Shown: piece after piece, positions 43,489-61,151 of the stretch
How the letters are laid out: each line of letters starts with the position of its first letter
Numbering within the stretch: position 1 is the first letter of the stretch
Origin: Pelagibacteraceae bacterium
GTDB lineage: Bacteria; Pseudomonadota; Alphaproteobacteria; HIMB59; GCA-002718135
Reading direction: 5' to 3'
DNA length: 64,000 nt
NCBI GenBank assembly: GCA_018657885.1
Contig: JABHWG010000082.1
Coordinates: forward strand, 190 to 64,189
Made by a program: the position numbers and the translations under genes
The notes under the pieces: generated by a model
Told to the model about the DNA's origin: nothing
Database searches by the model: none
The model's input: the letters and a program-made list of their open reading frames with translations, nothing else

Positions 43489-44469
43489 ATGGAAGTTAAT
43501 TTAGACAAATGGTATAAGTGTGAGATAGATAAAAAAGAGTTTAAAGAACTCTCTAAAAAATCTGATTGGCAGGGTTTTAAACACATTATTATCTATTTTT
43601 CTTTTTTAGGACTATTTGGTTATTTGGCTTTTGCTACATGGGGTACCTGGTGGTCTTTATTGTTTTTTTTAATATACGGAAATATATGGGGTTGCAGTGA
43701 TGCCATATGGCATGAAACAGGTCATAGAACAGCATTTAAGTCTAAATTTTGGAATGACCTCTTTTATTATATTGCAAGTTTCATGGATAATTTTGAACCT
43801 ATAAGGTGGAGATATTCACATTATCATCATCATACTTATACAATATTTACTGATCCAGTAGATTTCGAAATTCATGTTAAAAAACCAACTGACTTATTAA
43901 TTTTCTTTACTCATTATATTCCATTTTCTGGTTTTATTTTTTTTAAAAACTCCCTTCAATGGGAGACAATTAAACATGCTTTTGGAGTAACTACTGAAGT
44001 AATGAAAGTTTGTATTCCTCAGAATGAAGTTTCCAAATGTCGTTGGTCAGCAAGAAGCCATGTTTTTATTTGGGCTTTAACAATTTTTTGTTCTGTATAT
44101 TTCCAAACATGGTTACCAGTTTTATTTATTGTGCTTCCTAATTTTTATGGAAAGACATTAGTTATGTTAATGGGACTTACTCAGCATGCTGGATTACAAG
44201 AAGATATTAAAGATCATAGGCTAACAACTAGAACAGTTTATTTAAATCCAATATTCAGTTTTTTGTATTGGCATATGGAATATCATGTTGAACATCATAT
44301 GTTTCCACAGGTGCCATCACATAATTTAAAAAAGTTACATGCTTTGATTAAGGATCAAATGCCAGCAGCTAGAAAAGGTTTGTGGGGTGCATATAAAGAA
44401 ATTGTTCCTGCTTTAGTTAAACAAGCTAAAGATCCAAAATATAAAATACCTTTAGCAGTCCCTAACTAA
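43489..44469 (+). CDS. membrane di-iron oxygenase, fatty acid desaturase/AlkB superfamily (paralog D1)
   Basis: 326 aa with two pairs of TM helices and His boxes HETGH, HYHHH and HVEHH, plus GLTQHAGL (reminiscent of the AlkB NYxEHYGL block). It is divergent from the system A SBP. Confidence 0.85.
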   Translation: MEVNLDKWYKCEIDKKEFKELSKKSDWQGFKHIIIYFSFLGLFGYLAFATWGTWWSLLFFLIYGNIWGCSDAIWHETGHRTAFKSKFWNDLFYYIASFMDNFEPIRWRYSHYHHHTYTIFTDPVDFEIHVKKPTDLLIFFTHYIPFSGFIFFKNSLQWETIKHAFGVTTEVMKVCIPQNEVSKCRWSARSHVFIWALTIFCSVYFQTWLPVLFIVLPNFYGKTLVMLMGLTQHAGLQEDIKDHRLTTRTVYLNPIFSFLYWHMEYHVEHHMFPQVPSHNLKKLHALIKDQMPAARKGLWGAYKEIVPALVKQAKDPKYKIPLAVPN

Positions 44470-44525: not shown

Positions 44526-46022
44526 TTATTTTGAAGATATATTTAATGATATTTTTTGTTCATTAAAATCTTCATGATTGAATGTATTGCTTATCAAACC
44601 TTTTTGCATAGTTATAATTCTATTACAATTAATGATTAATTCAGGAATTTCATTAGATACGACTATTACGGATCCGCCCTCATTTGTAAATTCAGAAATT
44701 AATTTCCATATTTGTGTCTTAGCTGCAATATCAATTCCTCTAGTTGGTTCATCAAATAAAAGTATTTTACAATTTTTTACAAGCCATTTTGCAATAACTA
44801 CTTTTTGTTGGTTTCCTCCAGAGAGATTCATAACAAAGCTATCAATATTAGAAGCTTTAATGTCTAATTTTTTAACATAGTTATTTGTAGTTTTTGCAGC
44901 TGCATTAAATTTAAAAAACCCCATCTTGGTTAATTTGTTAAAAATAGTAAGAACACTATTATCTTTAATTGAATTATTTTGAATTAAGCCTTCATTTTTT
45001 CTATCAGAAGGTATGTATCCTATACCATTAACTATCGCATCTCTCGGCTTATTGATAGTAACAACTTTATCATTTAGAGAAAGTTGACCGTTATCTTGCT
45101 TTATTATTCCAAAAATACATCTTAAAAGTTCATTAGCCCCAGATCCTAAAAGTCCACTTAAACCTAAAATTTCTCCTTCATAAAGATCCATGCGTATTTT
45201 TTTAAATGTGTTTGAATAACTATAATTATTTATCTTAAGTATTGGTTTTTGAAAATTAATTATATTTTGATTGTTATTTTTTATCGAAATATTTTTTCCA
45301 ATCATAGATTTGATTAAACCTTCTTCATTCACTTCATTTTTTAAGAATGAATCATTTATTTTTCCATCTTTTAAAACTGTTATTCTATCTGAAATATGAA
45401 TAATTTCTTTTAATTTATGAGAAATATAAATTATACCAATACCATTGTTTTTTAATGTATTTATGATTTCAAATAAATTATCAATTTGTTTTTCATCTAA
45501 GGAAGCAGTAGGCTCATCCATTACAATAAATTTTGGTTTTTTTGCTAGAGCTTTACAAATTTCTATTATTTGCCATTGAGAAGTATTAAGGTTACCGACT
45601 ATTTTATTGGTACTTAGATTAACATTTATACTTTCTAAAAGAATTTTTGCATCTAAATGCATCTTTTTATAGTTAACAAAACCAGACTTATTATGGGGTT
45701 CATCACCTAAGTAAATATTTTCTGCTACAGTTAAGTTATTACATAATGCAAATTCTTGATGAACTATGGAAAGATTAAGATTGAATGCATCTTTTGGATC
45801 ATCAATTTTAACTACTTTATTATTAAATAATATTTGCCCATCATCTGGCTTCGTTATACCATTTAAAATTCCCATTAAAGTGGATTTACCAGCACCGTTT
45901 TGACCAATTAAAGAATGAACTTCTCCAGAAATAATTTCAAAAGACACTTCATCGAGTGCTTTAACACCTGGAAAGGTTTTTGATATACCTTTCATTATTA
46001 ATTGGTCTTTTTGTATACTCAT
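44526..46022 (-). CDS. sugar ABC transporter ATP-binding protein (fused double NBD), system B
   Basis: 498 aa with two NBDs: GQNGAGKST / MDEPTASL, and LSGGNQQKV / FDEPTRGID. The architecture is RbsA/MglA-like. Confidence 0.9.
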   Translation of the reverse strand: MSIQKDQLIMKGISKTFPGVKALDEVSFEIISGEVHSLIGQNGAGKSTLMGILNGITKPDDGQILFNNKVVKIDDPKDAFNLNLSIVHQEFALCNNLTVAENIYLGDEPHNKSGFVNYKKMHLDAKILLESINVNLSTNKIVGNLNTSQWQIIEICKALAKKPKFIVMDEPTASLDEKQIDNLFEIINTLKNNGIGIIYISHKLKEIIHISDRITVLKDGKINDSFLKNEVNEEGLIKSMIGKNISIKNNNQNIINFQKPILKINNYSYSNTFKKIRMDLYEGEILGLSGLLGSGANELLRCIFGIIKQDNGQLSLNDKVVTINKPRDAIVNGIGYIPSDRKNEGLIQNNSIKDNSVLTIFNKLTKMGFFKFNAAAKTTNNYVKKLDIKASNIDSFVMNLSGGNQQKVVIAKWLVKNCKILLFDEPTRGIDIAAKTQIWKLISEFTNEGGSVIVVSNEIPELIINCNRIITMQKGLISNTFNHEDFNEQKISLNISSK

Positions 46023-46040
46023 AAATAAATTTTATAATTC

Positions 46041-47618
46041 TTATGAAAAATTATATTTTTTTAACAATTCATGATGGTTACTCATATCATCTATTACGTT
46101 ATGATAAATACTCCGCCAAACATCAAAAAACTCACTATACATTTGGTGGTTTTGCATATTAGGTTCAAATGTCTCTTTGACTTTTACTATATCTTTAATA
46201 CTTTCAAGAGGATTTGAATAAAATCCAGCACCAACAGCAGCTAAAATTGCATCACCAAGTGGGGCTGCTTCAGGAGGAAAGCCTCTTTCTTCAGATTTTC
46301 CTACATCAGGTAAATCTAATGGCAAACCCGTGACATCAGATGTTATTTGATTCCAAAGTCTGCTTTTTGTAGGCCCTCCATTTAATGTAAATTTGTCAAT
46401 TTTTGCGCCAGCTTCTTTTGCTATTTTTACATTTGAATTACAATCAAATGCAACACCTTCAATCACTGATCTTATAAAATGCGCTTTAGAGGTCGTTGGT
46501 CTTATACCAAAAAACATGCCTGAAGCAGATGAGTTCCAATTAGGTGATAATGTGTTACCTAAATATGGAAAATACATCAAACCATCTGAGCCAGGTTTAA
46601 TTGTTTGTGCTTGCTTCGTTAAAAGATCAAATACATTTAAATTTTTCTCCTTAGCAATTTGCATTTCTAATTCAGCAAAATTATTCTTATACCAATTCAA
46701 AGACGCTCCAACAAATGCCATTGGTCCATCAAACATTGTCATACCTGGTATTACTGAAGTCCACTTTAATATTCTAAATTCATTAATTCTTTGAGATGTA
46801 GGTATCATGACACCAATATTTGCACCTGTTCCCATAGAGTAAAAAGCTTGACCTACCTCTACAACACCACAGCCAAGGGCTGCACAACTAATATCAGTTC
46901 CACCCGCGACTACTACAGCACCTTCTTTAATTCCTGTTTCTTCAGAAGCTTTTTTTGTTACCTTACCAACAACTTCATGAGAATTAAATATTGGGGGATA
47001 TTTTTCAATTGGTATTCCCAAACCTTTAGCTACTTCATCATTCCATTTTCCTGCTTGATATTCATAAGGATAAAATAATTGGGCATCACCATGATTCATA
47101 GTAAATTCGCCACACATTTTATAAGTACAATAACCAGACGGTGAAACTAGCTTATGTGTTTTTTCAAAATTTTTTGGCTCATGTTTTTTCATCCATAGAG
47201 CTTTGGGTTCTACAAACCAGGGTGCAACTCTGTTACCATTTATATTATTTATTTTTTCTTCACCTATAGTATTTCTAATATCTGTGCATTCTTCCTCAGA
47301 TCTTGAGTCCATCCAGATCATTCCAGGTCTAACTGGATTTCCTTCTTTATCTATAGGTAGCATTACTCCAACTAAGCCTGATAAAGATACTCCTGAAATT
47401 TTGTCACCATAAGAACCTTGTTTAAAACAATCTTTAACTGCATCTACTACAGCTTTCCAATAATTATCCCCTTCTTGTTCAGCATACCCAGGCTTTGGAT
47501 GAAAAAGTGGATGTTCTTTTAATGAGTGAGCAACAACCATGCCTTTGTCTACGTCAAGTACTGAAGCTTTAACTCCAGTTGTACCTATATCAATTCCTAG
47601 TGTATATTTTTCAATCAT
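46041..47618 (-). CDS. FGGY family carbohydrate/polyol kinase
   Basis: I prefer the start at MIEKYTLGIDIGTTGVKASVLD (47618), which follows GGAGGA at 47625-47630. About 525 aa, with FGGY N- and C-domain patterns (GGTDISCAALG, NGGPTKSRLWNQI). Confidence 0.85.
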   Translation of the reverse strand: MIEKYTLGIDIGTTGVKASVLDVDKGMVVAHSLKEHPLFHPKPGYAEQEGDNYWKAVVDAVKDCFKQGSYGDKISGVSLSGLVGVMLPIDKEGNPVRPGMIWMDSRSEEECTDIRNTIGEEKINNINGNRVAPWFVEPKALWMKKHEPKNFEKTHKLVSPSGYCTYKMCGEFTMNHGDAQLFYPYEYQAGKWNDEVAKGLGIPIEKYPPIFNSHEVVGKVTKKASEETGIKEGAVVVAGGTDISCAALGCGVVEVGQAFYSMGTGANIGVMIPTSQRINEFRILKWTSVIPGMTMFDGPMAFVGASLNWYKNNFAELEMQIAKEKNLNVFDLLTKQAQTIKPGSDGLMYFPYLGNTLSPNWNSSASGMFFGIRPTTSKAHFIRSVIEGVAFDCNSNVKIAKEAGAKIDKFTLNGGPTKSRLWNQITSDVTGLPLDLPDVGKSEERGFPPEAAPLGDAILAAVGAGFYSNPLESIKDIVKVKETFEPNMQNHQMYSEFFDVWRSIYHNVIDDMSNHHELLKKYNFS

Positions 47619-47619
47619 A

Positions 47620-48612
47620 TTATATCCTCCCAAAATTATTTTTTCTTTGGTCTAACATAACCACTAAGATTATGATTATACCAACAACTATATTTCTATG
47701 CCAAGTATTTAATCCCCACATTGAAAATAAACTAAATAGAGCGCCCATAACAATTGTTCCTAAAAAGGCTCTATATGGTGACCCTCTACCGCCTGTTAAA
47801 CTTACTCCACCAACGACAGCAAATGCAATTGCAGTCAGTTCGAAACCAACTGCTAACGGAGCATCAACTGTTTGTAATCTTGATGAAAATAATATCCCTG
47901 CAACAGATGCGCAAAAACCACTCATAATAAATGCTATAATAACCCAAAAAGTCACATTAATTCCCGCTAGCCTAGCAGTCTTTTCATCTCCACCAATCGA
48001 ATAAATTCTTCTTCCAACCAAAGTATATCTCATAATTATACTAGCTAAAATTGTCATTAAAACATATATCCAGGTTGAAAAAGGAATATAAAATAAATTT
48101 AATGTTCCCATCCATGTATAAGTTGGAATTTGTAAATAATAAGCATGACCATGCGTTAATACATAATTTAATCCCCATAAAGCTTTCATCATTGCAAGTG
48201 TCATAATAAACGATGTAATTTTGCCATACATAACTCCAATACCATTTATTAAACCAATAAGAATTCCTGTTAATAAAGATATAACAACTATAAAAGCCGC
48301 ACTGTTTGCATATTGATTACCCCTAACAAGAACTTTAAAATCAAACATATCACCAAAAAAAGCTAAAGAAGAAACAGCTAAAATTGGACCAAAAATTGTT
48401 AATGACCCCACAGATAAATCAATTCGTGAAACTAAAAATACAAAAGAAACTCCAAGTGCCAGCAGTCCAGGTACAGCCATGTTTCTAATCATATTTTGAA
48501 TGTTTATTATAGTAAAAAAATACTCACTTGTAAAAGTTCCAACAAGACAAATTAAAATAAATACAAAAAGTAAAAAATGATTTTTTAATATTTGTTTAAA
48601 GTTGATTTTCAT
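47620..48612 (-). CDS. sugar-type ABC transporter permease, system B (second)
   Basis: 330 aa polytopic protein with RIDLSVGS and GGVSLTGGRGS. It belongs to the RbsC family. Confidence 0.88.
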   Translation of the reverse strand: MKINFKQILKNHFLLFVFILICLVGTFTSEYFFTIINIQNMIRNMAVPGLLALGVSFVFLVSRIDLSVGSLTIFGPILAVSSLAFFGDMFDFKVLVRGNQYANSAAFIVVISLLTGILIGLINGIGVMYGKITSFIMTLAMMKALWGLNYVLTHGHAYYLQIPTYTWMGTLNLFYIPFSTWIYVLMTILASIIMRYTLVGRRIYSIGGDEKTARLAGINVTFWVIIAFIMSGFCASVAGILFSSRLQTVDAPLAVGFELTAIAFAVVGGVSLTGGRGSPYRAFLGTIVMGALFSLFSMWGLNTWHRNIVVGIIIILVVMLDQRKNNFGRI

Positions 48613-48615
48613 TTT

Positions 48616-49560: not shown

Positions 49561-49568
49561 GAAAAAAA

Positions 49569-49598
49569 CTTTCCCCTTATTTGATCTTAAGGAGAAAG
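49569..49598 (-). promoter_or_regulatory. intercistronic hairpin between the SBP and the first permease of system B, overlapping the permease RBS
   Basis: The arms are ctttcccctta (49569-49579) and taaggagaaag (49588-49598): 11 bp with one non-Watson-Crick position. On the minus strand the 3' arm carries AAGGGGA about 10 nt before the permease ATG. Confidence 0.4.
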
Positions 49599-49628
49599 TT
49601 AAAATTATTCAATAATCAAATTAAAATT

Positions 49629-50888
49629 TTACTCAGCTTCAGGTCCATACGCATATGGCCATTCATCTGGAGTAATTGTTTCAATTCCTGCGATTACCAT
49701 TTTTTCTTTTGTAATCATTGGTAGATTAGGAGTTACAATTTGTTTAGGAGGTTTTTCATTCAAACCTTCTTTTGCTCCAATATGTAATATTGCCGCTCTA
49801 ACACCAATGCCTCCTAAAAGAGGAGTATATGGTACTACTACATCCATATTACCTTTTCTAACTTCATTAACAGTTTCTTTTGAGTCATCATTAACAAGAA
49901 TGATAATTTTTCCACCGCCAGGAGCTGAGTTTAATCTATTAGCTTCTAAAACTGCATCAAGTGCACCTAGGGCTTCCTCACCACCTGTGTTAAAAATTAC
50001 AGAAACATCATCATGAGCTTGAAGAGCGTCCTGCGTAGCTTCAAAAGCAGCTTTTCTAGAACTATTTGTATGCATAGATTCACTGATAACATAATTATAA
50101 TCACCAATAGCTTCCATGAATGCGCCAGATCTCATTGAGTCAGCAGTACTTCCAAGAGGCTTTCTATTCATAACAATATTACCTTCACCATTAGCAACAT
50201 GATTTAAATAAAGACCTTGTTGCAAACCATTAGCATAAAAGTTTCCTAAAACTTCAGAACTAATATTTGGAGCTGCAGCTCTTCTATCAAGACTGACAAC
50301 AGGAATACCAGCAGCCTCTGCTCTTTCTACAGGAGGACCCATAGGAGCTTCTCTTGCAGGCCACATTACGATAGCATCCATTTGTTTTGCAATAAAATCA
50401 TCAATCATTTGACCCATTTTATTATCATCACCCTCTGCATCTAATACTTCTATTTCTACGTTTGAATGAAGATTTGCTTCATAAACAGCAGTATCTGCAA
50501 GACTAATTAACCATGGATGAAAACCCCAATGGTAAACAAAACCTATTCTGTATGTTTTGTCTGCATTTAATACTGGACCTTCTGCAATTGGAATATAATC
50601 ACTAAATGGAGCTTTAATAGGCAACCCGCTTAAAGGTCCCTCAAACTCTCTTCCCATACCAGGTTTCCATTCAAAACCTCCAGTCAATGATGTAACAGGG
50701 TAAACATCAAGAAAGTCCCTAAATCCATCTTTCTTGAAAAATTTTCCCAATTCTTCATTTTTAAATTCTTTCCAACCTTTTTGGTTTTCAGCAATTAAAT
50801 TATTTATATGACTATGAATATCAGCAGCATATAAATTAGCTGAAAACAAAAATGTAATTCCTATAATTAAATTACGAATTAACTTCAT
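49629..50888 (-). CDS. periplasmic PBP type I substrate-binding protein with an ~100-aa N-terminal extension, system B
   Basis: I prefer the start at MKLIRNLIIGITFLFSANLYA (50888), which follows GGGAGG at 50893-50898. The C-terminal ~300 aa are sugar-SBP-like. I do not recognise the N-terminal ~100 aa after the signal peptide. Confidence 0.8.
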   Translation of the reverse strand: MKLIRNLIIGITFLFSANLYAADIHSHINNLIAENQKGWKEFKNEELGKFFKKDGFRDFLDVYPVTSLTGGFEWKPGMGREFEGPLSGLPIKAPFSDYIPIAEGPVLNADKTYRIGFVYHWGFHPWLISLADTAVYEANLHSNVEIEVLDAEGDDNKMGQMIDDFIAKQMDAIVMWPAREAPMGPPVERAEAAGIPVVSLDRRAAAPNISSEVLGNFYANGLQQGLYLNHVANGEGNIVMNRKPLGSTADSMRSGAFMEAIGDYNYVISESMHTNSSRKAAFEATQDALQAHDDVSVIFNTGGEEALGALDAVLEANRLNSAPGGGKIIILVNDDSKETVNEVRKGNMDVVVPYTPLLGGIGVRAAILHIGAKEGLNEKPPKQIVTPNLPMITKEKMVIAGIETITPDEWPYAYGPEAE

Positions 50889-51310
50889 ATTACCTCCCTT
50901 AATATTTTTAATTTTTGTTAAAGATAACAAATTAAAATTCAACCTATACAAAAATTTATACAAAATATTATATAATAAATGAATGAGAAGTATTCACAAA
51001 AAATATATATTTTAGTAATTTGTTGTGATATTTTATTGAAATGATTGAACAAATTCAAATAATTAGTTGAAATAATATTGTAATAAAGCTTTCTATAGAG
51101 TCTCTTAAAAAAAATATATACTTTTAATGTATGTTTATCATACTAATCTATTTGATTGTTTAGTTTTTATACATATAATTTTAATGCTAATAATTATTCA
51201 CCTCTAAAGTATTAATATATTATTAGTATTGTAAATTTTGCTTAGTTAAAATGAACTGTAAATATTCATTAGGAAAAAAAATTACGATTAAAAATTAAAA
51301 AAAAATTTAC

Positions 51311-52195
51311 TTATTCTAAAATAATTTTTTTAGCAGTTTCAATAAAAGCATTAACCAAATTGTCTGTTTTTTTCTTTTTTAAACATACTAAATAAGCTTG
51401 AGTAAAAATATCATAATCTTCTATATGGATTTTTTTTATATCTTTATAGTTATCAAATTCTGGCTCAGATATAAGACCAAGTCCAATATTTTCTTTAACA
51501 GCTTGAACCATCGTAGTTCTACTTACTTCCATAATTGTATTTACATTAATTGAAGCTTTGCTTAAATTTTCTTCAAAAACCCTTCTGGTTTCAGATCCAG
51601 TTTCTCTATTAATGAAATTAGTTCCATTTAATTCATGTAACTTAATTGTTTTATTGTTGTAAAACTTATTACCTTTACCAGCAATAATTACAATTTTTTG
51701 TTTTAAGTAAGGGATATGATATAAGTCTGACTTAAAATTTTCCTTAAGGGGCTTTCCAATGACGCCTAAATCTATTTGAAAATTATATAATTTATCTAAA
51801 ATTTCATTTGAATTACTTGAAATAATTTTTAATTCAATTCCTGGATGTAATTTTTTAAATTCTTTTATTAGTTTAATAATATAATAAGTTCCTGAAGTAC
51901 CAGTTACTAAAGTCCCTTTATGTATGTTAAGGTTAGAAGAAAAAAGTTGAATAGCTTGCTCTTCAAGTTCAAAAATTCCAGATGTTATTTCAAAAAGTTT
52001 TCGCCCTAAATCTGTAAGAGAAATACCACGGGCATGCCTGTTTATTACATTAATAGAATAGAATTCTTCTAATAGCTGTATCTGTTTTGTAATAGTAGGT
52101 TGACTTATGTTTAACAGCTTTGCAGCAAGAGTAATACTTTCAGTTTTAGCTACGGCATGAAAAGATCTCAATTGGCTAAAATTAATATATTTCAT
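51311..52195 (-). CDS. LysR family transcriptional regulator
   Basis: 294 aa with the N-terminal HTH LRSFHAVAKTESITLAAKLLNISQPTITKQIQLLE and a LysR substrate-binding domain. Confidence 0.9.
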   Translation of the reverse strand: MKYINFSQLRSFHAVAKTESITLAAKLLNISQPTITKQIQLLEEFYSINVINRHARGISLTDLGRKLFEITSGIFELEEQAIQLFSSNLNIHKGTLVTGTSGTYYIIKLIKEFKKLHPGIELKIISSNSNEILDKLYNFQIDLGVIGKPLKENFKSDLYHIPYLKQKIVIIAGKGNKFYNNKTIKLHELNGTNFINRETGSETRRVFEENLSKASINVNTIMEVSRTTMVQAVKENIGLGLISEPEFDNYKDIKKIHIEDYDIFTQAYLVCLKKKKTDNLVNAFIETAKKIILE

Positions 52196-52257
52196 ATAGT
52201 TTTTACCTAAATTAAATATTTAAATATAGATAAAAACTATATTATGAAACTAAAAAA

Positions 52258-53091
52258 TTAAGAAATTAATTTTTTAAATGCTTCAAGCTCTTTTTTATTA
52301 ATATTTACAAGCTCATTACTCTTCGGAAATGTTTGATTTTGAACGGCAGACTTAAAACTTTTTATAGAATTAACTCTTTCTCTATAAATTTCATTCTTTA
52401 ACTTTAGAATATTTCCAAAAGATCTTGCATGTCTTGGAATATTTTCTTGCTCCCCACAGATATCATTTTGAAATAAATAAATTATATCTCCGCTTAAACC
52501 AGAGCCTAAAGAACTGGTAATTAGAGATGTTTTTTTACTTATTTCTAGCATTACCTCTTCTAAAATAATTTCACACTCTGCTGAAAAAGCTCCAGCACTT
52601 TCCATTGTTTTGAATTCATTAAATAATTTATAAGCTTCTTCCGCAGTCTTTCCAATTGCCCTTAAACCACCTTTCCATGATGATTTTCTTGGCACTAATC
52701 CCAAGTGGCACATAACAGGAATATCTTCCTTAGATAACATTTCAACTATGTGTGGACCCCTTGCAGTATAAATTTGATCAGCGCCTACTGACATTGCACG
52801 AAATGCTTCATTTAAAACTTCAGTAGTTGTTGGAAATAAAGCAAGATCTATAGTTGCAGTCAAAAAAATATCCGGCGCTCCCTTTCTTATTTCATCTATA
52901 AAAGGTGATTTGCACAATAACATATCTATGCCCGCTTCTTTAGCAGCTGAAGCTTCTTCAATATTAGTGGCAGTTGTTTGTAGGAATTTTTTCTTACCCT
53001 TGTTTTCTAATAAATCTGATACAGTAAGATTTCTGTCAGCAAACTTACCTCCCCAAGTATATAATTTTTTCATGAATATGTTAATTATCAT
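52258..53091 (-). CDS. PanB-like protein (ketopantoate hydroxymethyltransferase family), divergent paralog P1
   Basis: The C-terminal half aligns by eye with PanB (MCHLGLVPRKSSWKGGLRAIGKT; SSLGSGLSGDIIYLFQNDICGEQENIPRHARSF). The N-terminal region is shorter than in P2-P4. The start is uncertain (53091 or 53073). Confidence 0.72.
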   Translation of the reverse strand: MIINIFMKKLYTWGGKFADRNLTVSDLLENKGKKKFLQTTATNIEEASAAKEAGIDMLLCKSPFIDEIRKGAPDIFLTATIDLALFPTTTEVLNEAFRAMSVGADQIYTARGPHIVEMLSKEDIPVMCHLGLVPRKSSWKGGLRAIGKTAEEAYKLFNEFKTMESAGAFSAECEIILEEVMLEISKKTSLITSSLGSGLSGDIIYLFQNDICGEQENIPRHARSFGNILKLKNEIYRERVNSIKSFKSAVQNQTFPKSNELVNINKKELEAFKKLIS

Positions 53092-53204
53092 AAATCTATA
53101 TTCTTATCAAATAGACTCTATTTCCAAAACATAGTTAATAAGCATATTTTGTATTCATAAAATATATTTGATAAATATAATTTAAATATTATTTAAGTTT
53201 TAAG

Positions 53205-54170
53205 ATGGAAATTAATACAGAATATCAATGGCCCTATCATGGTTCAAAGTTAATTTCTAAAGACAAATTAAGACCTTTTTTGAAAAGAAATAATATTAGT
53301 GGTATAATACATCTTTGTATACATTTAGGACTAATACTGTTCTCGGGGATTTTAATCCATTTTTCAGCAAATATATTCCTTAAGATATTAGTAATGACAG
53401 CTCATGGAAGTTTCATAGCTTTTCTATATGCTGGACTTCACGAGTGTATACATAAATCTGCTTTTAAAAATAAGAGATTAAATGAAATTGTAGGTTATTT
53501 TATAGGTTTTGTGCTTCTAAGATCTTTTCTAAATGGAAGATATAGACACATGGCGCATCATACTTTTACACAACATCCAGAAAAAGATCCTGATAAAGTT
53601 GATTTTCCCTCAGGATATATCGATTATCTTAAGCATGTAACCAGTTTTACTTTATGGATTAGAATAATAGAAAACTTATTTAGACATTCTTTGGGTAAAA
53701 CAAGTGAATCTGAAAAAAACTATATTCCAGAAAGTGAAATCAAATCATTGATATTTGAATCAAGAATGATGTCAATTGGATACATTTTAATAATCTTTCT
53801 TTCAATTTATTTTAGTTCAACTTTTTTTCTTATTTATTGGTTTATACCAAGAATACTAGGTGAGCCTTTCTTAAGATTAGTAAGAATGGTAGAACATACA
53901 GGAAAAGATGAAACAGCGGACATGATACATAATACTAGAACATCTTTTCCAAGCGCATTTTTAAAATTTCTTTATTGGAATATGCCTTATCATATTGAGC
54001 ATCATTTATACGCCAGTGTGCCATTCCATAAACTTCCAAAATTTCATAACTTAATTAAGCCTCACACAGATGAAGTCGAGTCATCAATTTTATCAGTCCA
54101 TATAGAAATTCTTAAGCAGATATGGAAAAATAAAAAAAATAAGAAAAAAGAGAATTTATTAAGCATATAA
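53205..54170 (+). CDS. membrane di-iron oxygenase, fatty acid desaturase superfamily (divergent paralog D2)
   Basis: 321 aa with His boxes HECIH, HMAHH and HIEHH, TM helices, and a Lys-rich tail. It is divergent from P1. Confidence 0.8.
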   Translation: MEINTEYQWPYHGSKLISKDKLRPFLKRNNISGIIHLCIHLGLILFSGILIHFSANIFLKILVMTAHGSFIAFLYAGLHECIHKSAFKNKRLNEIVGYFIGFVLLRSFLNGRYRHMAHHTFTQHPEKDPDKVDFPSGYIDYLKHVTSFTLWIRIIENLFRHSLGKTSESEKNYIPESEIKSLIFESRMMSIGYILIIFLSIYFSSTFFLIYWFIPRILGEPFLRLVRMVEHTGKDETADMIHNTRTSFPSAFLKFLYWNMPYHIEHHLYASVPFHKLPKFHNLIKPHTDEVESSILSVHIEILKQIWKNKKNKKKENLLSI

Positions 54171-54217: not shown

Positions 54218-55045
54218 TCATTTTTTTTCAACAAAGTTTAGAAATTGATCATACTCTTTTGCATTTATTGATACTGTAATTTTTGGATCATCAAATTTTT
54301 TATTTTCAGTATCACTAATAAATTCTTTATATGCTGCTACTCTTTCTTTATGCAGTCTATCAAACTCTTTATTAAAGTTTTTATAAATTCTTGAATGTCT
54401 TGGTATGTGACCTGTGTTATAACCCAATATATCTTGAGAAAATAAATACTGACCATCACATAGTGACCCACTTCCCATTGATATGGTTAAAAGTTTAACT
54501 TTTTTAGTAATAATTTCTGCTACCTTTGTTGGAACTACTTCTAATTCAACTGCAATAGCTCCAGCATCATCTAATTCTAGAGTATGTTCCAATACTCCCA
54601 TAGCTTCTTTTGCAGTTTTGCCAATAGCTCTAAAGCCACCTAGCCAATTAGCATGTCCTGGGATTAAACCTACATGACTAATTACAGGAACTTTTTCTCT
54701 ATAAAGAGCTTTAATAATATTTGTACTATTATTGGTATAAAAAGAGTCACACCCTATTGATAACAGTTTGTAAGCCGCTCTAACTGCTTCATCTTCTGTA
54801 GCAAATGATCTTTCCGGTGCTGCACTCATTAAATGAGTGTTAGGTGCTGCCTCTCTAATTCTTTTGACATCATCAAACGTTCCATAAATACCGTGTTGAG
54901 GCATGCCATAAGCAGTCACAATCATATCTATGCCTGCTTCTTCAGCAGCAATAGCTTCTTCAACATTATTTACATACACGTCATGAATTTGTTTTTTTCC
55001 TTTTAATTTAAGCAAATCATAAACAGTTAATTTTTTTTTATTCAT
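54218..55045 (-). CDS. PanB-like protein, paralog P2 (last gene of ABC operon C)
   Basis: 275 aa with SHVGLIPGHANWLGGFRAIGKT, AVELEVVP and SMGSGSLCDGQYLFSQDILGYNTGHIPRHSRIY. There is a 12-nt gap after the ATPase gene. Confidence 0.8.
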   Translation of the reverse strand: MNKKKLTVYDLLKLKGKKQIHDVYVNNVEEAIAAEEAGIDMIVTAYGMPQHGIYGTFDDVKRIREAAPNTHLMSAAPERSFATEDEAVRAAYKLLSIGCDSFYTNNSTNIIKALYREKVPVISHVGLIPGHANWLGGFRAIGKTAKEAMGVLEHTLELDDAGAIAVELEVVPTKVAEIITKKVKLLTISMGSGSLCDGQYLFSQDILGYNTGHIPRHSRIYKNFNKEFDRLHKERVAAYKEFISDTENKKFDDPKITVSINAKEYDQFLNFVEKK

Positions 55046-55057
55046 TTAATCTCCTAA

Positions 55058-55792
55058 TTATCCAATTAATTTTATGAGTTCGTTAACTGTTGTATCCTCT
55101 TTAGGCATATCACAAACTTTCTCACCCCTTGCCATACCAACAATTCTATCGGCAATCTCATGAACATGGTATAAATTGTGACTGATAAAAATACTTCCAA
55201 TGCCGATTGATTTAAGACTTTGAACATATTCCAAGACTTTTAGAGTTTCTTTAACTGATAGATGGTTTGTTGGTTCATCTAAAATTAACATTTTAGATTT
55301 AAAGTACATCGATCTTGCAATTGCAACTCCCTGTCTTTCCCCACCTGATAATTCTTTTACTGGAATATGAGGTGATCTTAAATCCAAACCTACATCTTTT
55401 ATAGCTTTCATAGATTCTAAATTCATTTTTTTCTCATTTAAGATCGATAGAGAGCTTAATCCAAATTTTACTGGCTCCCTCCCAATAAATACATTTCTAG
55501 CAATAGACATTTCTTGAAACATGGTGTTGTATTGATGAATAGTTTCTATTCCTAAGTCCATGGCCATTTTAGGATTTTTGATATTAACTTTATGACCTTC
55601 AAAATAAATTTCTCCATTGTCTAACCCGTGCACACCACAAATAATTTTTATTAGAGTTGATTTACCTGCACCATTATCGCCAATTAAACCAATGACTTCT
55701 CCTTTGTTTATTTCCAAATCAACATTTTTTAAGGCGTGAAGATTTCCATACCATTTATTTAATTTGCTACACTTTAATAAATCTTTTGACAT
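55058..55792 (-). CDS. ABC transporter ATP-binding protein (single NBD), system C
   Basis: 244 aa with GDNGAGKST, LSGGERQG and LILDEPT. Confidence 0.88.
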   Translation of the reverse strand: MSKDLLKCSKLNKWYGNLHALKNVDLEINKGEVIGLIGDNGAGKSTLIKIICGVHGLDNGEIYFEGHKVNIKNPKMAMDLGIETIHQYNTMFQEMSIARNVFIGREPVKFGLSSLSILNEKKMNLESMKAIKDVGLDLRSPHIPVKELSGGERQGVAIARSMYFKSKMLILDEPTNHLSVKETLKVLEYVQSLKSIGIGSIFISHNLYHVHEIADRIVGMARGEKVCDMPKEDTTVNELIKLIG

Positions 55793-55808
55793 AATAATAA
55801 ATTACAAC

Positions 55809-56789: not shown

Positions 56790-56800
56790 GTTTAAAAATT

Positions 56801-56831
56801 ATTTGCGGTCAAATTAATATTGACCGCAAAT
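56801..56831 (-). promoter_or_regulatory. intercistronic hairpin after the SBP gene of system C
   Basis: atttgcggtca / tgaccgcaaat form a perfect 11-bp stem with a 9-nt loop. It is relatively GC-rich in an AT-rich spacer. Confidence 0.5.
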
Positions 56832-56848
56832 ATATGATTATTATAATT

Positions 56849-57817: not shown

Positions 57818-57988
57818 TTTACCTCCATATAAATATTTCATATATGAAACTTAAACATATACGCAATTTAATTAAAAGGGTTTTTACGAAATTTTATGTA
57901 AAATTTTTTAGTATGAAATACATACTTAATGAAAATATGTGATCTTTTTTCACTTGAAAAATAATATTTACGATATAATTTACTTCAA

Positions 57989-59020
57989 ATGGTTGTAATT
58001 AGAGATACTAATATATCTGGTGACTTAGAAGAAAAGCTTGGTAAAAATATTTGGTGGAAACCAGATATTGATAAAAAAGAGTTTAAAAAACTTTGTGTCA
58101 AGAGAACCATGCCTGGAATAATTTACACCAGTATGTATTTCATAGCCTTGGCAGGCTCTGGTTATTTAGCTTATTATACCTGGGGTACTTATTGGACCAT
58201 TTTATGGTTTTGGATTTATGGAACCATATATTCTTTTAGTGGTGCATATGATCATGAAAGCAGACATAGAACTTTATTTAAGCAAAGGTGGTTAAATGAA
58301 TTTTTCCAATACATTTTTTCTTTTATGACTAACTTTGAGCCAGTACGATGGAGATGGACTCATACTCTACACCATAGTTATACTCTTCATACAAAAGAAC
58401 CTTTGGATTTTGAAATTCAAGTTGATAGACCAAGTAAACTTTTTAAATATTTTGTTAGCTTTATGCCTTTTGGCCCATTACTTTGGATTCATCAATCTTA
58501 TTTAGCAGAAACTTTAAAAAATTCCCTAGGTATCATGACACCAGTCATTGAAGACTGTGTTCCTAAAGAGCATCAATGGAAGGTTTTTCTTTCCTCTAGA
58601 ATACATATGCTTATATGGGCATCTATAATTATCTTATCAATTTACTTTAACACTATTCTCCCAGTTTTATTTTTTCTATTACCTACATTTTATGGAAATA
58701 CTTTTTTTGCACTATGTGGTTTAACTCAGCATGCAGGACTTGCATTTGATGTTAAAGATCACCGTGTAAATTCGAGAACGGTTATTTTAAATCCAATTCT
58801 TAGTTGGTTATATGTAAAGTTAGAATACCATCAAGAACATCATATGTTTCCACAAGTACCCTGGTACAACTTACCTAAACTGCACGAGATGATTAAAGAT
58901 CAAATGCCTAAACCTAATAAAGGTTTAATCAGTGCCTACAGAGATATCATTCCTGCCATTATCAAACAAGCTTATGATCCAAACTTTGTTCCAGATAGAA
59001 AGCTTCCAAAATCTGTTTAA
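57989..59020 (+). CDS. membrane di-iron oxygenase, fatty acid desaturase/AlkB superfamily (paralog D3)
   Basis: 343 aa with His boxes HESRH, HTLHH and HQEHH, plus GLTQHAGL. It is clearly paralogous to D1 and D4 (shared blocks NFEPVRWR, LPxFYGNT, DHRxxxRTVxLNP, MFPQVP, IKDQMP). Confidence 0.85.
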   Translation: MVVIRDTNISGDLEEKLGKNIWWKPDIDKKEFKKLCVKRTMPGIIYTSMYFIALAGSGYLAYYTWGTYWTILWFWIYGTIYSFSGAYDHESRHRTLFKQRWLNEFFQYIFSFMTNFEPVRWRWTHTLHHSYTLHTKEPLDFEIQVDRPSKLFKYFVSFMPFGPLLWIHQSYLAETLKNSLGIMTPVIEDCVPKEHQWKVFLSSRIHMLIWASIIILSIYFNTILPVLFFLLPTFYGNTFFALCGLTQHAGLAFDVKDHRVNSRTVILNPILSWLYVKLEYHQEHHMFPQVPWYNLPKLHEMIKDQMPKPNKGLISAYRDIIPAIIKQAYDPNFVPDRKLPKSV

Positions 59021-59115: not shown

Positions 59116-60348
59116 ATGAATAAAATATCAAAAATATTAATCCTTGGCGGGGGTCAAGCTGCTGCATATGCTGCAAAAGAGATTAGATCCATTGATATTA
59201 AGTCAGATTTAACTATTATTAGTGAAGAAAAATACTTACCATATGAAAGACCACCTTTATCTAAAGATTATATTTTAGATAAAGTTACATTTGATGATCT
59301 TCTTTTTTTTCCAGAAAATTTTTATAAAGAAAATAAAATTAATTTTATTGGCAGTACCCAAATAAACAAAGTTGATTTTGATAATAAAAAAATTAGCAGT
59401 TCACTAAAAAATTATGATTATGATAAATTATTAATAGCTACAGGTTCTACTAATAGGCATTTAGTGATAAGTGGTAAAACAATTTTACCTGAAGAGAATA
59501 TAATTTATTTAAGAAATTTTGAAGAGAGTAATATTTTAAAAAATAAAATTAATGAGGCTAATAATATTACAATTATCGGAGGTGGTTTTATAGGTTTAGA
59601 AATTGCTTCATCAGCAGTACAGAAAGGAAAAAATATTACAATTCTTGAGAGAGCTAGTCAGTTGATGGGTAGAGTGATCCCATTAGAGATAGCTAATTTA
59701 ATTCAAGATAAACATAAGGCTGTAGGTACTAAAATTCATTTAAATGCTGATATTAAAGATATTAAAAAAATTAATAATTCATATGAAATTAATCATAATA
59801 ATCAAATTTTATCTGCTGATTTAATTATTATAGGTGTAGGCTCTTTACCTAATACAGAAATTTTTCAAAACACCTCTTTAAAAATTGATAATGGAATTAT
59901 CACCGATGAATTTTCAGCAACTTCAATAGAAGATGTGTATGCAGCAGGTGATGTGTCAAATTTTTATCATCCCTTTTATCAGGAATATATGCGCCTTGAG
60001 TCATTTAAACATGCGCAAAATCATGGAATAAACGCTGGTAAAAATTTAATAGGACAAAAAACTTCTTACAATAAAATACCTTGGATGTGGTCTGATCAGT
60101 TTAATTTAAATTTACAACTAACAGGCATTTGTAATAATTATGATGCTACTGCACAAAGAGGCTCAACTCTTGAAGAAGGAATAATTTATTTTTTTCTTAA
60201 AAATAGAAAAATAGTGGGTGCCTGTGGTTTGGGCGTAGGAGGAAAAATAGGAAGAGATATTCGGTTAGCTGGAAAACTTTCAGAAAAAAAAACTAAAGTA
60301 ACTAACGAATTACTTTCAGATAAAAATAATAAGTTAAATAAAATTTAA
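59116..60348 (+). CDS. FAD-dependent ferredoxin--NAD(P)+ reductase (pyridine nucleotide-disulfide oxidoreductase family)
   Basis: 410 aa with the FAD-binding ILILGGGQAAAYAA, the NAD-binding ITIIGGGFIGLEIASS, AAGDV, and a C-terminal reductase domain. It resembles putidaredoxin, rubredoxin and Rieske-ferredoxin reductases. Confidence 0.85.
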   Translation: MNKISKILILGGGQAAAYAAKEIRSIDIKSDLTIISEEKYLPYERPPLSKDYILDKVTFDDLLFFPENFYKENKINFIGSTQINKVDFDNKKISSSLKNYDYDKLLIATGSTNRHLVISGKTILPEENIIYLRNFEESNILKNKINEANNITIIGGGFIGLEIASSAVQKGKNITILERASQLMGRVIPLEIANLIQDKHKAVGTKIHLNADIKDIKKINNSYEINHNNQILSADLIIIGVGSLPNTEIFQNTSLKIDNGIITDEFSATSIEDVYAAGDVSNFYHPFYQEYMRLESFKHAQNHGINAGKNLIGQKTSYNKIPWMWSDQFNLNLQLTGICNNYDATAQRGSTLEEGIIYFFLKNRKIVGACGLGVGGKIGRDIRLAGKLSEKKTKVTNELLSDKNNKLNKI

Positions 60349-60354
60349 CTTATT

Positions 60355-60747: not shown

Positions 60748-60827
60748 ATAATGTCATTTAAGAATATTATTTTTTAAAAAAAAATGTATAAAACTTGAAT
60801 TTAATAAAATTTAACTAGGTAAATAAT

Positions 60828-61151
60828 ATGGAAACTGAAAACAAAAATTGGCAGCTTGTAAGTGGTACTGCAGATATGGATATTGAAGACATAATTCGCT
60901 TTGATTATAACAATAAAACATACTGTGTGTATAAGCTTGAAGATGGATTTTTTGCTACAGATGGAATTTGTACTCATGAAGCGGTGCATTTAGAGGAAGG
61001 CTTAGTTATGGACGGTGAAATAGAATGTCCTATGCACCAAGGAATATTTGATATTAAGTCTGGGGCAGCCATAAGCCCTCCAGCCTGTGAAGATTTAAAA
61101 ACTTATCCAGTTAAAGTTGAAAATGATTTAGTTTATATTAATATATTCTAA
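60828..61151 (+). CDS. Rieske [2Fe-2S] ferredoxin (small, stand-alone)
   Basis: 107 aa with CTHEAVHL-x-CPMHQGIF, i.e. CxH-x16-CxxH. The size and layout match ferredoxin components of multicomponent oxygenases. Confidence 0.88.
   Translation: METENKNWQLVSGTADMDIEDIIRFDYNNKTYCVYKLEDGFFATDGICTHEAVHLEEGLVMDGEIECPMHQGIFDIKSGAAISPPACEDLKTYPVKVENDLVYINIF

Follow-up and report, generated by a model that had tools for sequence, protein, structure and literature searches.

The window, by which we mean the whole 64,000-nucleotide stretch of DNA analysed here, contains an island with four oxygenase genes (D1 to D4, all matching Pfam family PF00487), four PanB-like genes (P1 to P4, all matching PF02548 and lying within 12 kb) and four sugar-type ABC transporters. 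D2 and P1 are transcribed divergently from a common spacer. The relevant genes and features are:

43489..44469 (+), D1, clade A oxygenase paralogue (ORF, Pfam, tree)
44526..46022 (-), ABC transporter ATPase with two ABC_tran domains (Pfam; syntenic with D2 orthologues in about 40 genomes)
46041..47633 (-), FGGY-family sugar kinase (FGGY_N and FGGY_C)
47620-48612 and 48616-49560 (-), two ABC permeases (ORFs; kept beside D2 orthologues in 41/59 loci)
49629..50963 (-), periplasmic sugar-type substrate-binding protein (Peripla_BP_4)
51311..52195 (-), LysR-type transcriptional regulator (HTH_1, 62 bits; LysR_substrate, 99 bits)
52258..53091 (-), P1, PanB-like TIM-barrel protein of subfamily clade X (PF02548, 101 bits)
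53073 (-), alternative start of P1 at Met7
53092..53204 (no strand), divergent intergenic spacer between P1 and D2 (113 nt)
53205..54170 (+), D2, membrane di-iron oxygenase of the FA_desaturase family, orthogroup clade B (PF00487, 130 bits)
54218..55045 (-), P2, clade Y (ORF, Pfam, tree)
57989..59020 (+), D3, clade A oxygenase paralogue (ORF, Pfam, tree)
59116..60348 (+), ferredoxin reductase (FAD/NAD; Pyr_redox_2 and Reductase_C)
60828..61151 (+), Rieske [2Fe-2S] ferredoxin, MocE-like (Rieske Pfam)
61168-61995, 62001-63017 and 63081-63914 (+), P3-D4-P4 operon (ORFs, Pfam, tree)

The divergent pair and its paralogues

D2 carries three His boxes (H79-x3-H83, H115-x2-H118-H119 and H263-x2-H266-H267) that are invariant among 17 orthologues and conform to the pattern HX3-4H, HX2-3HH, HX2-3HH. 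Together with hydrophobic stretches at about residues 30-77 and 181-216, they mark the protein as a di-iron oxygenase of the FA_desaturase family. A comparison of D2 with solved structures gave no match. The regulator has the N-terminal HTH_1 and C-terminal LysR_substrate domains that define its family. Most P1 orthologues are 271 amino acids long and start at the equivalent of Met7 of P1; with this start, the spacer would be 131 rather than 113 nucleotides. P1 has an N-terminal extension, MKKLYTWGGKF..RN, that an earlier note on this DNA did not mention.

That note described D2 and P1 as the outliers of their respective four-member families, and the pairwise identities agree. D2 is 27-32% identical to D1, D3 and D4, which share 46-52% with each other, and P1 is 34-38% identical to P2 through P4, which share 43-57%. 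The open reading frames likewise bear out the divergence of the pair from the 113-nucleotide spacer and the position of the LysR gene 3' of P1 on the same strand. The shortened N-terminal region that had been seen in P1 is a real deletion of 13 residues, common to the whole P1 subfamily. Both motifs quoted for the other P proteins are exact in P2 through P4; those quoted for the other oxygenases are exact in D1 and D3, but D4 is exact for only two of the seven.

P2 is convergent to D2 and is the terminal gene of a second sugar-ABC operon (54218-57841) that diverges from D3. The P3-D4-P4 operon lies immediately 3' of the Rieske gene, with gaps of 16, 5 and 63 nucleotides from the Rieske gene on. 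D1 has no adjacent P gene in the window, and its orthologue in two other loci (L004 and L005) overlaps a P gene by 8 nucleotides. Because two of the four P genes are direct neighbours of D2, with P1 divergent and P2 convergent, the chance of finding the outlier oxygenase beside the outlier P gene is about 0.5, and within the window alone this coincidence is weak and insignificant. It is only from other genomes that the pairing of D2 with P1 is seen to be non-random.

A widely distributed cluster around D2

Orthologues of D2 are present at 59 loci of other genomes (35-99% identity), spread over Proteobacteria and Actinobacteria. The set in these loci comprises genes for the Rieske ferredoxin, the binding protein, the two permeases, the FGGY kinase, the ATPase, D2 itself, the ferredoxin reductase and LysR; no further conserved enzymes were found in the 59 loci. 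The kinase is present in 50 of them (53-95% identity) and a LysR orthologue in 51, and in most the Rieske gene adjoins D2 and a ferredoxin reductase homologue lies directly 3' of it. The binding protein, which has a long N-terminal extension and probably a real start at Met26 (near 50888), is 56-75% identical to its cluster counterparts in Rhizobiales, Rhodobacterales, Burkholderiales and a few assemblies labelled actinobacterial.

In the window, the ATPase gene is the final gene of the transporter/kinase operon. The kinase is xylulokinase-like but scores below the cut-off of TIGR01312 (342 versus 380 bits), and the Rieske ferredoxin falls just under that of the MocE family TIGR02377 (120.2 versus 136.15 bits). 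Among solved structures, the binding protein and the kinase have only distant ribose-binding, xylulokinase and AI-2-kinase relatives, none of them close. The ferredoxin reductase is presumed to be the electron donor common to the D oxygenases. D2 is a member of an ancient orthogroup and belongs to an old, widely distributed catabolic cluster for sugar uptake and oxidation.

Among 35 informative metagenomic contigs, 34 place the P1 orthologue beside a D2-type gene, and LysR adjoins the P1 orthologue in 32 of 39. In the window P1 and LysR form a unit that is divergent to D2; in a sister lineage LysR itself stands divergent to P1-D2-ferredoxin reductase-Rieske, a co-directional arrangement present in four of those P1-D2 contigs. 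D2, P1 and LysR are a real conserved trio in SAR11-like marine bacteria. Within this trio, LysR belongs by orthology to the D2 cluster and is not a partner specific to P1.

We infer that LysR controls the D2/P1 spacer. A DNA alignment of five orthologous spacers contains a conserved block (53129-53174), which is a candidate promoter or LysR site and whose core (53154-53174) has no second copy elsewhere in the window. An inverted-repeat search of the spacer for a LysR dyad returned many imperfect AT-rich repeats, none convincing. The matches from a promoter and terminator scan of 50.9-54.3 kb were not above shuffled expectation, and an Rfam scan of 40-64 kb gave only sub-threshold sRNA noise, with no THF or other riboswitch.

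Pairing of D and P genes across genomes

The functional coupling of D with P suggested by the earlier note is supported by comparative evidence, as P1 keeps its place beside D2-type genes in the metagenomic contigs and operons of the form D-Rieske-(FdR)-P, where FdR is the ferredoxin reductase, occur elsewhere. Such operons were found in Aliiroseovarius, two other assemblies (one labelled Pseudomonadota), Sinorhizobium meliloti and Rhizobium leguminosarum. The D-Rieske-FdR-P operons of rhizobia sit on plasmids, and the Rieske gene of the D-E-F-P operon of R. leguminosarum is annotated as MocE family. For more distant clade-X relatives of P1, 26 of 29 informative contigs have a D-family gene either next to the P gene or no more than 3 kb away. 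Some P genes have no D gene alongside, and one locus (L002) has a D2 orthologue without P1. That homologues of D2 and P1 stay together stands when viewed from P1, but a P gene lies within 10 kb in only 10 of the 59 D2 loci, which goes partly against the expectation of the earlier note.

The D and P trees each have a deep two-clade split with 99-100% bootstrap support, and the D and P distances of 17 pairs are correlated (Mantel test, r = 0.38, p = 0.002). Within the SAR11-like lineage, the D and P identities match pair by pair (84/84, 73/72, 72/75 and 69/66%). The mirror trees anticipated in the earlier note were recovered in part: the deepest D split mostly maps onto the deepest P split, which together with the Mantel result also supports the coupling of D with P, but the SAR11-like pairing is recombinant. 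The closest relatives of P1 outside the lineage (55-60% identity) are partnered by oxygenases not of the D2 type, so partners have been swapped; for those at 55-56% the partners are clade-A oxygenases, which share 24-25% identity with D2. The nearest D2 orthologues outside SAR11 (42-45% identity to D2) come with P proteins that share only 39% with P1. Co-evolution of the two partners had been offered as the cause of their outlier status, and this is not supported. Instead, the phylogenies suggest that D2 and P1 look divergent since they come from different ancient subfamilies than D1/D3/D4 and P2-P4, and not through recent joint drift.

We consider it unlikely that D2 and P1 co-evolved to act in succession on one specific substrate, with P acting on the carbon skeleton, for example by a reverse-PanB removal of a new C-hydroxymethyl branch. 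The matching identities within the lineage, the corresponding deep splits and the Mantel correlation speak for such a history, as does the fact that each island D has its own diverged P despite a streamlined genome. However, matching rates are expected of any two adjacent, vertically inherited genes, the nearest relatives of each partner have other associates, and 49 of the 59 loci of the D2 orthogroup have no P. The proposed chemistry also sits poorly with the P proteins, which are without the Mg/2-oxoacid site that C-C chemistry of the PanB type requires.

Alternative genes in the position of P

A gene resembling class III alcohol dehydrogenase (ADH) occurs in 39 of the 59 D2 loci, 35 of which also have an esterase/hydrolase gene of the Abhydrolase_3 family (alpha/beta hydrolase). 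Not one of the 59 has both P and the ADH-like gene, and 10 have neither; the exclusivity has a Fisher p of 3e-6, which is uncorrected for phylogeny and involves few independent lineages. In one locus (L016) the esterase and ADH genes stand between LysR and D2, the same slot that P1 fills in the window. Loci of the Streptomyces type consist of D2-kinase-Rieske-LysR only, so that the step carried out by P or ADH appears to be accessory.

Five representative ADH-like proteins, including actinobacterial ones, score 430-515 bits against the S-(hydroxymethyl)glutathione dehydrogenase model TIGR02818, under its cut-off of 543.95. Actinobacteria are not known to have glutathione, and a class III paralogue that is under the equivalog cut-off and has copies there is therefore best seen as a dedicated enzyme. 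The same scores and actinobacterial copies led us to reject a true glutathione-dependent formaldehyde dehydrogenase as the displacing ADH. The ADH and hydrolase pair could alternatively be a sugar dehydrogenase and a lactonase.

It is quite improbable, in our estimation, that P and the ADH-like/hydrolase pair are unrelated alternative downstream steps, their exclusivity being uninformative on one-carbon chemistry and D2 just hydroxylating or desaturating a sugar-like substrate. Consistent with such a view, the ADH-like proteins are under the formaldehyde-dehydrogenase equivalog cut-off, the hydrolase belongs only to a general family, and in a related cluster of the SAR116 type D-Rieske is followed by an aldehyde dehydrogenase. 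Against it, the nearest families of both displaced genes work on formaldehyde adducts, PanB belongs to a small number of enzyme families known to process a hydroxymethyl/methylene-THF unit, and loci without P and ADH-like genes still retain oxygenase and kinase. In addition MocDEF, the closest named system, is proposed to demethylate.

A PanB fold without the PanB site

The P proteins score far above the PF02548 gathering cut-off of 28.7 bits (P1 101, P2 139, P3 128 and P4 114 bits). In contrast, P1 and P2 reach only 74 and 111 bits with the PanB equivalog TIGR00222 (cut-off 207.55), and 85 and 124 bits with NF001452 (cut-off 272). The AlphaFold model of P1 (pLDDT 90.3) has PanB structures at all of ranks 1-28 in the PDB, with TM-scores of 0.59-0.72, and its predicted fold is the (beta/alpha)8 barrel of the PEP-mutase/isocitrate-lyase superfamily with PanB topology.

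All 17 P sequences are without D45, S46, D84, K112 and E114 of PanB (E. coli numbering, checked on the 1m3u alignment). Positions 45 and 46 are deleted or carry other residues, D84 is changed to T, A, G or C, K112 to an invariant Tyr, and E114 to A, N, G, C or S. In the study of 1M3U, Asp45 and Asp84 are reported to be the Mg2+ ligands of PanB, and Ser46, Lys112 and Glu114 its contacts to substrate (ketopantoate); PanB is not known to have a defined folate site. The same 17 sequences keep H136, E181, D209 and D217, with an invariant His136-x-G-L-x-P motif, and have in addition acquired an Asp, a Tyr and a Glu, all invariant, on strands of the barrel. Alignment and model alike identify the P proteins as putative PanB-fold enzymes and not canonical PanB. 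That P1 is an ordinary PanB of pantothenate synthesis, lying beside D2 and LysR incidentally, is very hard to believe: its Pfam score, its fold and the RefSeq label of its relatives (3-methyl-2-oxobutanoate hydroxymethyltransferase) would favour this, but the equivalog scores of 74-111 bits, the five residues missing in all members examined, the four copies within 12 kb and the adjacency to D genes kept across lineages argue against it.

Proposed function and comparison with known systems

Our main reading, to which we give a probability of about 0.55, is that D2, P1 and LysR represent, in its SAR11-like form, an old LysR-regulated cluster for MocDEF-like demethylation of an imported sugar-like compound, with P handling the one-carbon unit. 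The sugar-type ABC transporter (44526-50963) would import the compound. D2, the ferredoxin reductase and the Rieske ferredoxin would form a three-component membrane di-iron monooxygenase of the MocDEF type that hydroxylates a methyl group on it, most likely O- or N-methyl, and the FGGY kinase would pass the demethylated product to central metabolism. An accessory step would take care of what results, a hydroxymethyl group (hemiacetal) or formaldehyde. For most lineages, the class-III-ADH paralogue and the alpha/beta hydrolase may convert the hemiacetal to a formyl ester and then to formate. In the SAR11-like and a few other marine lineages, this step would fall to the PanB-like P, which, having lost the Mg/2-oxoacid site, probably moves the hydroxymethyl unit onto tetrahydrofolate.

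P1 probably disposes of the one-carbon fragment removed by the oxygenase. We infer the demethylation chemistry, the one-carbon role of P and tetrahydrofolate as the acceptor. More tentative, and with the odds against it, is the specific proposal that D and P are a two-enzyme oxidative demethylase, in which the substrate-bound hydroxymethyl group would reach tetrahydrofolate via P and the methyl carbon would be kept as methylene-THF with no toxic formaldehyde. SAR11 is known for THF-linked one-carbon oxidation; no tetrahydrofolate-related genes were found in the island. That a streamlined genome keeps four diverged copies of P speaks against a generic formaldehyde scavenger and fits a substrate- or partner-specific role, which is nearer to the view of the earlier note.

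MocDEF, from the rhizopine locus of S. meliloti L5-30 and R. leguminosarum, has the same three parts (FA_desaturase oxygenase, Rieske ferredoxin and FAD reductase), a likeness of components. It is likewise tied to uptake of a sugar-like compound via a Peripla_BP_4 binding protein, and its proposed O-methyl removal resembles what we propose for D2. MocDEF is said to have been put forward as a demethylating system by Bahar et al. in 1998; its chemistry is itself a proposal. The systems differ in regulator, MocR as opposed to LysR, and in the FGGY kinase present in the D2 cluster; no MocR-type regulator or mocABC genes were found in the window. The description of the canonical mocDEF/moc locus in PMC10107442, which also cites Bahar et al., includes neither a P-type gene nor an ADH-like/hydrolase pair.

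PanB of E. coli (1M3U) and M. tuberculosis (1OY0) shares with P the TIM-barrel fold, PF02548 and residues H136, E181, D209 and D217, and its family handles a hydroxymethyl/5,10-methylene-THF unit. In contrast to PanB, P is multi-copy, lies in catabolic oxygenase clusters and is never with pan genes among the loci examined. The ADH-like/esterase pair follows the same logic as class III ADH (FrmA) with S-formylglutathione hydrolase (FrmB), from hemi(thio)acetal to formyl (thio)ester to formate. However, the ADH of the D2 cluster is under the equivalog cut-off and also actinobacterial, and the hydrolase is of the Abhydrolase_3 and not the esterase D family. The outcome proposed for P, a methyl carbon converted to methylene-THF, is that of DmdA, LigM and the folate sites of sarcosine and dimethylglycine oxidases; these are GcvT-fold domains, whereas P is a PanB-fold candidate encoded apart from the oxygenase, with a putative use of folate. 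The best NCBIfam match of D2 is GntB, the L-arginine gamma-hydroxylase of guanitoxin biosynthesis (70 bits, cut-off 380). GntB is a precedent for FA_desaturase-type membrane di-iron enzymes acting on small polar molecules, although it is biosynthetic and has another gene context than D2.

Implications

Full-text literature searches turned up no paper that connects PanB-like genes to an oxygenase of the MocD-like or FA_desaturase kind, and no description of this island in SAR11 or HIMB59. Metabolic reconstructions that count P genes as panB are probably wrong, since the PanB metal site is absent. The exchange of P for the ADH-like/hydrolase pair offers a genetic handle on function in culturable rhizobia. 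If true, the two-enzyme demethylase would add a reaction that is new to the PanB superfamily. SAR11-like bacteria rank with the most abundant marine cells and are known to oxidise methyl groups of dissolved organic matter. The island, with its four oxygenases, four PanB-like genes and four ABC transporters of the sugar type, suggests that a class of methylated sugar-like substrates has gone unrecognised, and the proposed pathway would give SAR11-like bacteria a new multi-copy methyl-harvesting route, with a dehydrogenase/esterase bypass in soil bacteria.

Gene layout of the island

The island spans approximately position 40514 to the window end and contains four sugar-type ABC systems, four membrane di-iron oxygenase genes of the FA_desaturase family (PF00487; D1–D4), four PanB-like genes (PF02548; P1–P4), one ferredoxin reductase (FdR), one Rieske ferredoxin and an HxlR-family regulator. 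Housekeeping genes (cytochrome oxidase, UbiA, Amt, DsbD and peroxiredoxin) are located upstream. The G+C content of the window is ~29%, and the closest database relatives carry the labels Pelagibacteraceae or marine Alphaproteobacteria. A riboswitch search of the island region returned no candidates. ORF and Pfam checks place the LysR-type regulator, P1 and D2 where the earlier note had located them.

Features of the window discussed in the text
51311-52195, minus strand, LysR-type regulator (ORF, Pfam)
52258-53091, minus strand, P1, PanB-like (ORF, Pfam)
53205-54170, plus strand, D2, FA_desaturase family (ORF, Pfam)
43489-44469, D1
57989-59020, D3
62001-63017, D4
54218-55045, minus strand, P2
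61168-61995, P3
63081-63914, P4
44526-54170 plus 59116-61151, window counterparts of the D2 cluster

The HxlR-family regulator (74 bits; 60355-60747, minus strand) lies between the FdR gene and a Rieske-P3-D4-P4 operon, from which it is divergent. The founding member of the HxlR family is formaldehyde-responsive, and such a regulator would thus fit a formaldehyde-producing island. In the binding protein of the D2 cluster (49629-50963, minus strand), ~115 extra residues separate the signal peptide from the Peripla_BP_4 domain, which begins near residue 140. The annotated TTG start is probably 75 nucleotides too far upstream, since the signal-peptide-like sequence starts at Met26.

D2 and P1 are the outliers of their families, as originally described. 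D2 is 27–32% identical to D1, D3 and D4, which share 46–52% identity with one another, and P1 is 34–38% identical to P2–P4 (mutually 43–57%). The 13-residue deletion that shortens the N-terminal region of P1 is genuine. The sequence blocks quoted as common to D1, D3 and D4 match D1 and D3 exactly, whereas most of them match D4 only approximately. The D2/P1 spacer is indeed 113 nucleotides, although the majority of P1 orthologues begin at the equivalent of Met7, a start that would make it 131 nucleotides. D2 is flanked on both sides by P genes and so touches two of the four; the prior for the outliers being neighbors is therefore about one half within the window alone, and proof of a meaningful adjacency has to come from other genomes.

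D2 belongs to a widespread gene cluster

A scan for D2 relatives, limited to one genome of each species, gave 80 loci. In 59 of these, a D2 relative (35–99% identity) resides within a recurring set of genes for a Rieske ferredoxin, a sugar-type binding protein, two permeases, an FGGY kinase, an ABC ATPase, D2, FdR and LysR. The cluster is present in Proteobacteria including Mesorhizobium, Sinorhizobium, Rhizobium, Paracoccus, Nioella, Hoeflea, Caballeronia, Paraburkholderia and Xenophilus, as well as in Mycobacterium, Pseudonocardia and Streptomyces. Clustering of all ORFs from the 59 loci revealed no additional conserved enzyme. Because an orthologous LysR gene occurs in 51 of the 59 loci, the regulator is a member of the D2 cluster and is not specific to P1.

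In MarineAlpha5_Bin5 (L002, 7100-9782) a D2 orthologue with 85% identity is accompanied by FdR and Rieske genes and preceded by a CN_hydrolase gene, with no P1, LysR, transporter or kinase gene within 7–10 kb; this locus is either a real exception or an assembly artefact of the metagenome-assembled genome. In the closest outgroup to the D2 orthogroup, from a SAR116 single-cell genome (L077, 8927-15616), a LysR gene is divergent from genes for D, Rieske, aldehyde dehydrogenase, a 454-amino-acid protein and FdR, in that order. With the aldehyde dehydrogenase, a third type of accessory enzyme comes after the oxygenase.

P genes and an ADH-like/hydrolase unit exclude one another

Using a P1–P4 profile, we found that just 10 of the 59 loci have a P gene within 10 kb of D2. 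Five are SAR11-like and share the window's divergent layout, the order is D2-FdR-Rieske-P in Hoeflea and two Nioella loci, a Rhodobiaceae locus has P-D2, and in an Afifellaceae locus P is 6 kb from D2. A paralogue of class III alcohol dehydrogenase (ADH-like) is encoded in 39 of the 59 loci, adjoined in 35 of the 39 by an alpha/beta hydrolase gene, and this unit is mostly contiguous with LysR. P and ADH-like genes are never found together (0 of 59; Fisher p = 3e-6, uncorrected for phylogeny), and neither the ADH-like nor the hydrolase gene is present in the window. In one locus (L016), the position that LysR-P1 has in the window, divergent from D2, is taken by LysR-hydrolase-ADH.

Against the S-(hydroxymethyl)glutathione dehydrogenase model, whose cut-off is 544, the ADH-like proteins reach 430–515 bits. 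These scores include copies from actinobacteria, which to our knowledge lack glutathione, and the proteins are therefore dedicated paralogues. Another 10 loci carry neither gene, so the P or ADH step is accessory; they comprise Streptomyces-type loci (D2-kinase-Rieske-LysR alone), some short contigs, L002, and two Burkholderiales-labeled loci in which only D2 was recognized.

P1 and D2 form a stable unit in the SAR11-like lineage

The scarcity of P across D2 loci weakens the expectation that D2 and P1 homologues are found together, but within the SAR11-like lineage that expectation holds. Querying metagenomes with P1 yielded 80 contigs, in which proteins with at least 66% identity were taken as P1 orthologues. 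A D2-type gene is directly beside the P1 orthologue in 34 of 35 informative contigs, and is divergent as in the window in 30 of these 34. The remaining four contigs have LysR divergent from P1-D2-FdR-Rieske, an order that puts P1 and D2 in one operon. LysR is beside the P1 orthologue in 32 of 39 contigs, and a further long contig (L090) has the same architecture as the window, transporter and kinase included. The D2-P1-LysR trio is thus a stable unit in this lineage.

Metagenome contigs of a sister lineage (L114, L115, L117 and L124; P1 66–70% identical) show the classical arrangement, with LysR divergent from a P1-D2-FdR-Rieske operon led by P1; L114 terminates within the D2 gene. FdR and Rieske directly follow D2 in L003, L094, L097 and L100. 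In the window, a module of P2, ABC ATPase, permease, binding protein and D3 (54218-59020) separates D2 from FdR (59116-60348), which is only 51–55% identical to the FdR of those four loci, whereas D2, P1, P3 and D4 are 73–91% identical. This comparison suggests that the module was inserted and the reductase replaced. In two further metagenome contigs (L095 and L101), P3-D4-P4 directly follows D2 on the same strand, with no reductase or Rieske gene between. D/P modules are freely shuffled within the island.

Across five orthologous loci, the spacer between D2 and P1 contains a conserved block (53129-53174 in the window). This block lies 31–76 nucleotides upstream of the start codon of D2, where a LysR-type activator could plausibly bind. 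No second copy of its core (53154-53174) was found in the window, and promoter-like matches and inverted repeats in the region do not exceed chance for such AT-rich sequence.

Exchange of partners between D and P families

Roseobacter-type, SAR116-type and other marine bacteria encode P proteins with 49–60% identity to P1; in their loci, LacI is divergent from D-Rieske-P, D precedes P, or D and P are divergent. A D-family gene is adjacent or at most 3 kb away in 26 of 29 informative contigs, and in none of the 26 is it of D2 type. A few P genes lack a visible D gene. One clade-X P gene (L088, 8001-8822, on a 4.2-Mb chromosome; P0234) has no oxygenase nearby; it is directly downstream of a sulfatase gene and sits in a one-carbon neighborhood: genes for sarcosine oxidase subunits and for glutathione-dependent formaldehyde activation (GFA) are a few kb away at most.

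Neighbor-joining trees with bootstrap, built separately for each family, both contain two deep clades. D clade A includes D1, D3, D4 and the Aliiroseovarius and S. meliloti oxygenases, and clade B is the D2 orthogroup. P clade X includes P1 and Roseobacter-type proteins, with the Hoeflea/Nioella type as its sister group, and clade Y includes P2, P3, P4 and the S. meliloti protein. The mirror trees expected of co-evolving partners are seen only in part: pairs are mostly B-X or A-Y and a Mantel test on 17 pairs is positive but modest (r = 0.38, p = 0.002), yet Roseobacter-type operons are A-X. Roseobacter-type P proteins are 55–56% identical to P1 with oxygenases only 24–25% identical to D2, whereas the Hoeflea/Nioella values are 39% and 45%; since the two identities rank these pairs oppositely, at least one partner swap has occurred. 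D2 and P1 diverge at equal rates within the SAR11-like lineage, as expected for adjacent genes inherited together.

Functional coupling of D and P is therefore supported by adjacency conserved in several lineages. Parallel co-evolutionary divergence, which the earlier note proposed, is not the best explanation of the two outliers: D2 and P1 belong to separate ancient subfamilies, most D2 clusters lack P, and partner exchange has taken place.

P is a remodeled PanB-fold protein

The P-family profile aligns over its full length with E. coli PanB (1M3U). Asp45 and Ser46 (in a loop deleted in clade X) and Glu114 are lost in all 17 P proteins compared with the 1M3U sequence, Asp84 is replaced by T, A, G or C, and Lys112 by an invariant Tyr (17/17). 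By the numbering of the profile alignment, the lost residues are reportedly the Mg2+ and ketopantoate contacts of PanB. His136, Glu181, Asp209 and Asp217 are retained in all 17, and the P proteins have gained invariant Asp and Glu residues (positions 109 and 179, respectively) together with a Pro-Arg-His motif. Scores against NCBIfam PanB models are far below the cut-offs. The AlphaFold model of P1 is confident (pLDDT 90.3), and its best 28 PDB matches are all PanB. The predicted PanB fold and conserved barrel-end residues indicate that P is an enzyme, and the residue pattern that it is not PanB, the 2-oxoacid/Mg chemistry having gone.

An N-terminal extension, K-(K/R)-x-Y-x-W-x3-F-x2-R-N, is conserved in P1 (residues 7–22) and its clade-X homologues. 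It is restricted to clade X and the Hoeflea/Nioella sister group, is missing in P2–P4, and contains two short strands in the P1 model (residues 8–11 and 17–20). This extension may serve in docking.

Rhizobial plasmids commonly carry operons that combine genes for FA desaturase, MocE-family ferredoxin and FAD oxidoreductase with 'panB', for example in R. leguminosarum (L172, NZ_CP071401) and S. meliloti (L087, CP050561). The P gene there is labeled PanB and assigned a pantothenate-biosynthesis GO term, probably a misannotation given that the P family lacks the PanB metal site.

A possible role in demethylation

MocDEF, for which demethylation of the rhizopine 3-O-methyl-scyllo-inosamine has reportedly been proposed, has the same composition as the D2 system: an oxygenase, a MocE-like Rieske protein and an FAD reductase. 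The Rieske partner of D2 (60828-61151) scores 120 bits, below the MocE cut-off of 136, and is likewise partnered with an FAD reductase. The moc locus has been described (PMC10107442); our literature search found no paper describing a D-P module. We rate the D2/P1 system as a MocDEF-like oxygenase system with a remodeled PanB-fold partner.

No other enzyme apart from the FGGY kinase is conserved, and the transporters are of sugar type. The accessory slot holds relatives of formaldehyde-adduct enzymes, or a relative of the PanB family, whose enzymes move hydroxymethyl groups to or from tetrahydrofolate. These components fit one demethylation scheme, whose chemistry we infer from gene associations and residue patterns. 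D would hydroxylate a methyl group attached to O or N, giving a hemiacetal or carbinolamine. This product would be oxidized to a formyl ester or amide and hydrolyzed, by the ADH-like protein and hydrolase, or alternatively its hydroxymethyl group would be passed to tetrahydrofolate by P. The demethylated sugar would then be phosphorylated. That a small genome carries four diverged copies of P argues that P recognizes its own oxygenase or a substrate-bound intermediate, not free formaldehyde, and to this extent part of the original idea of D-P partnership stays alive.
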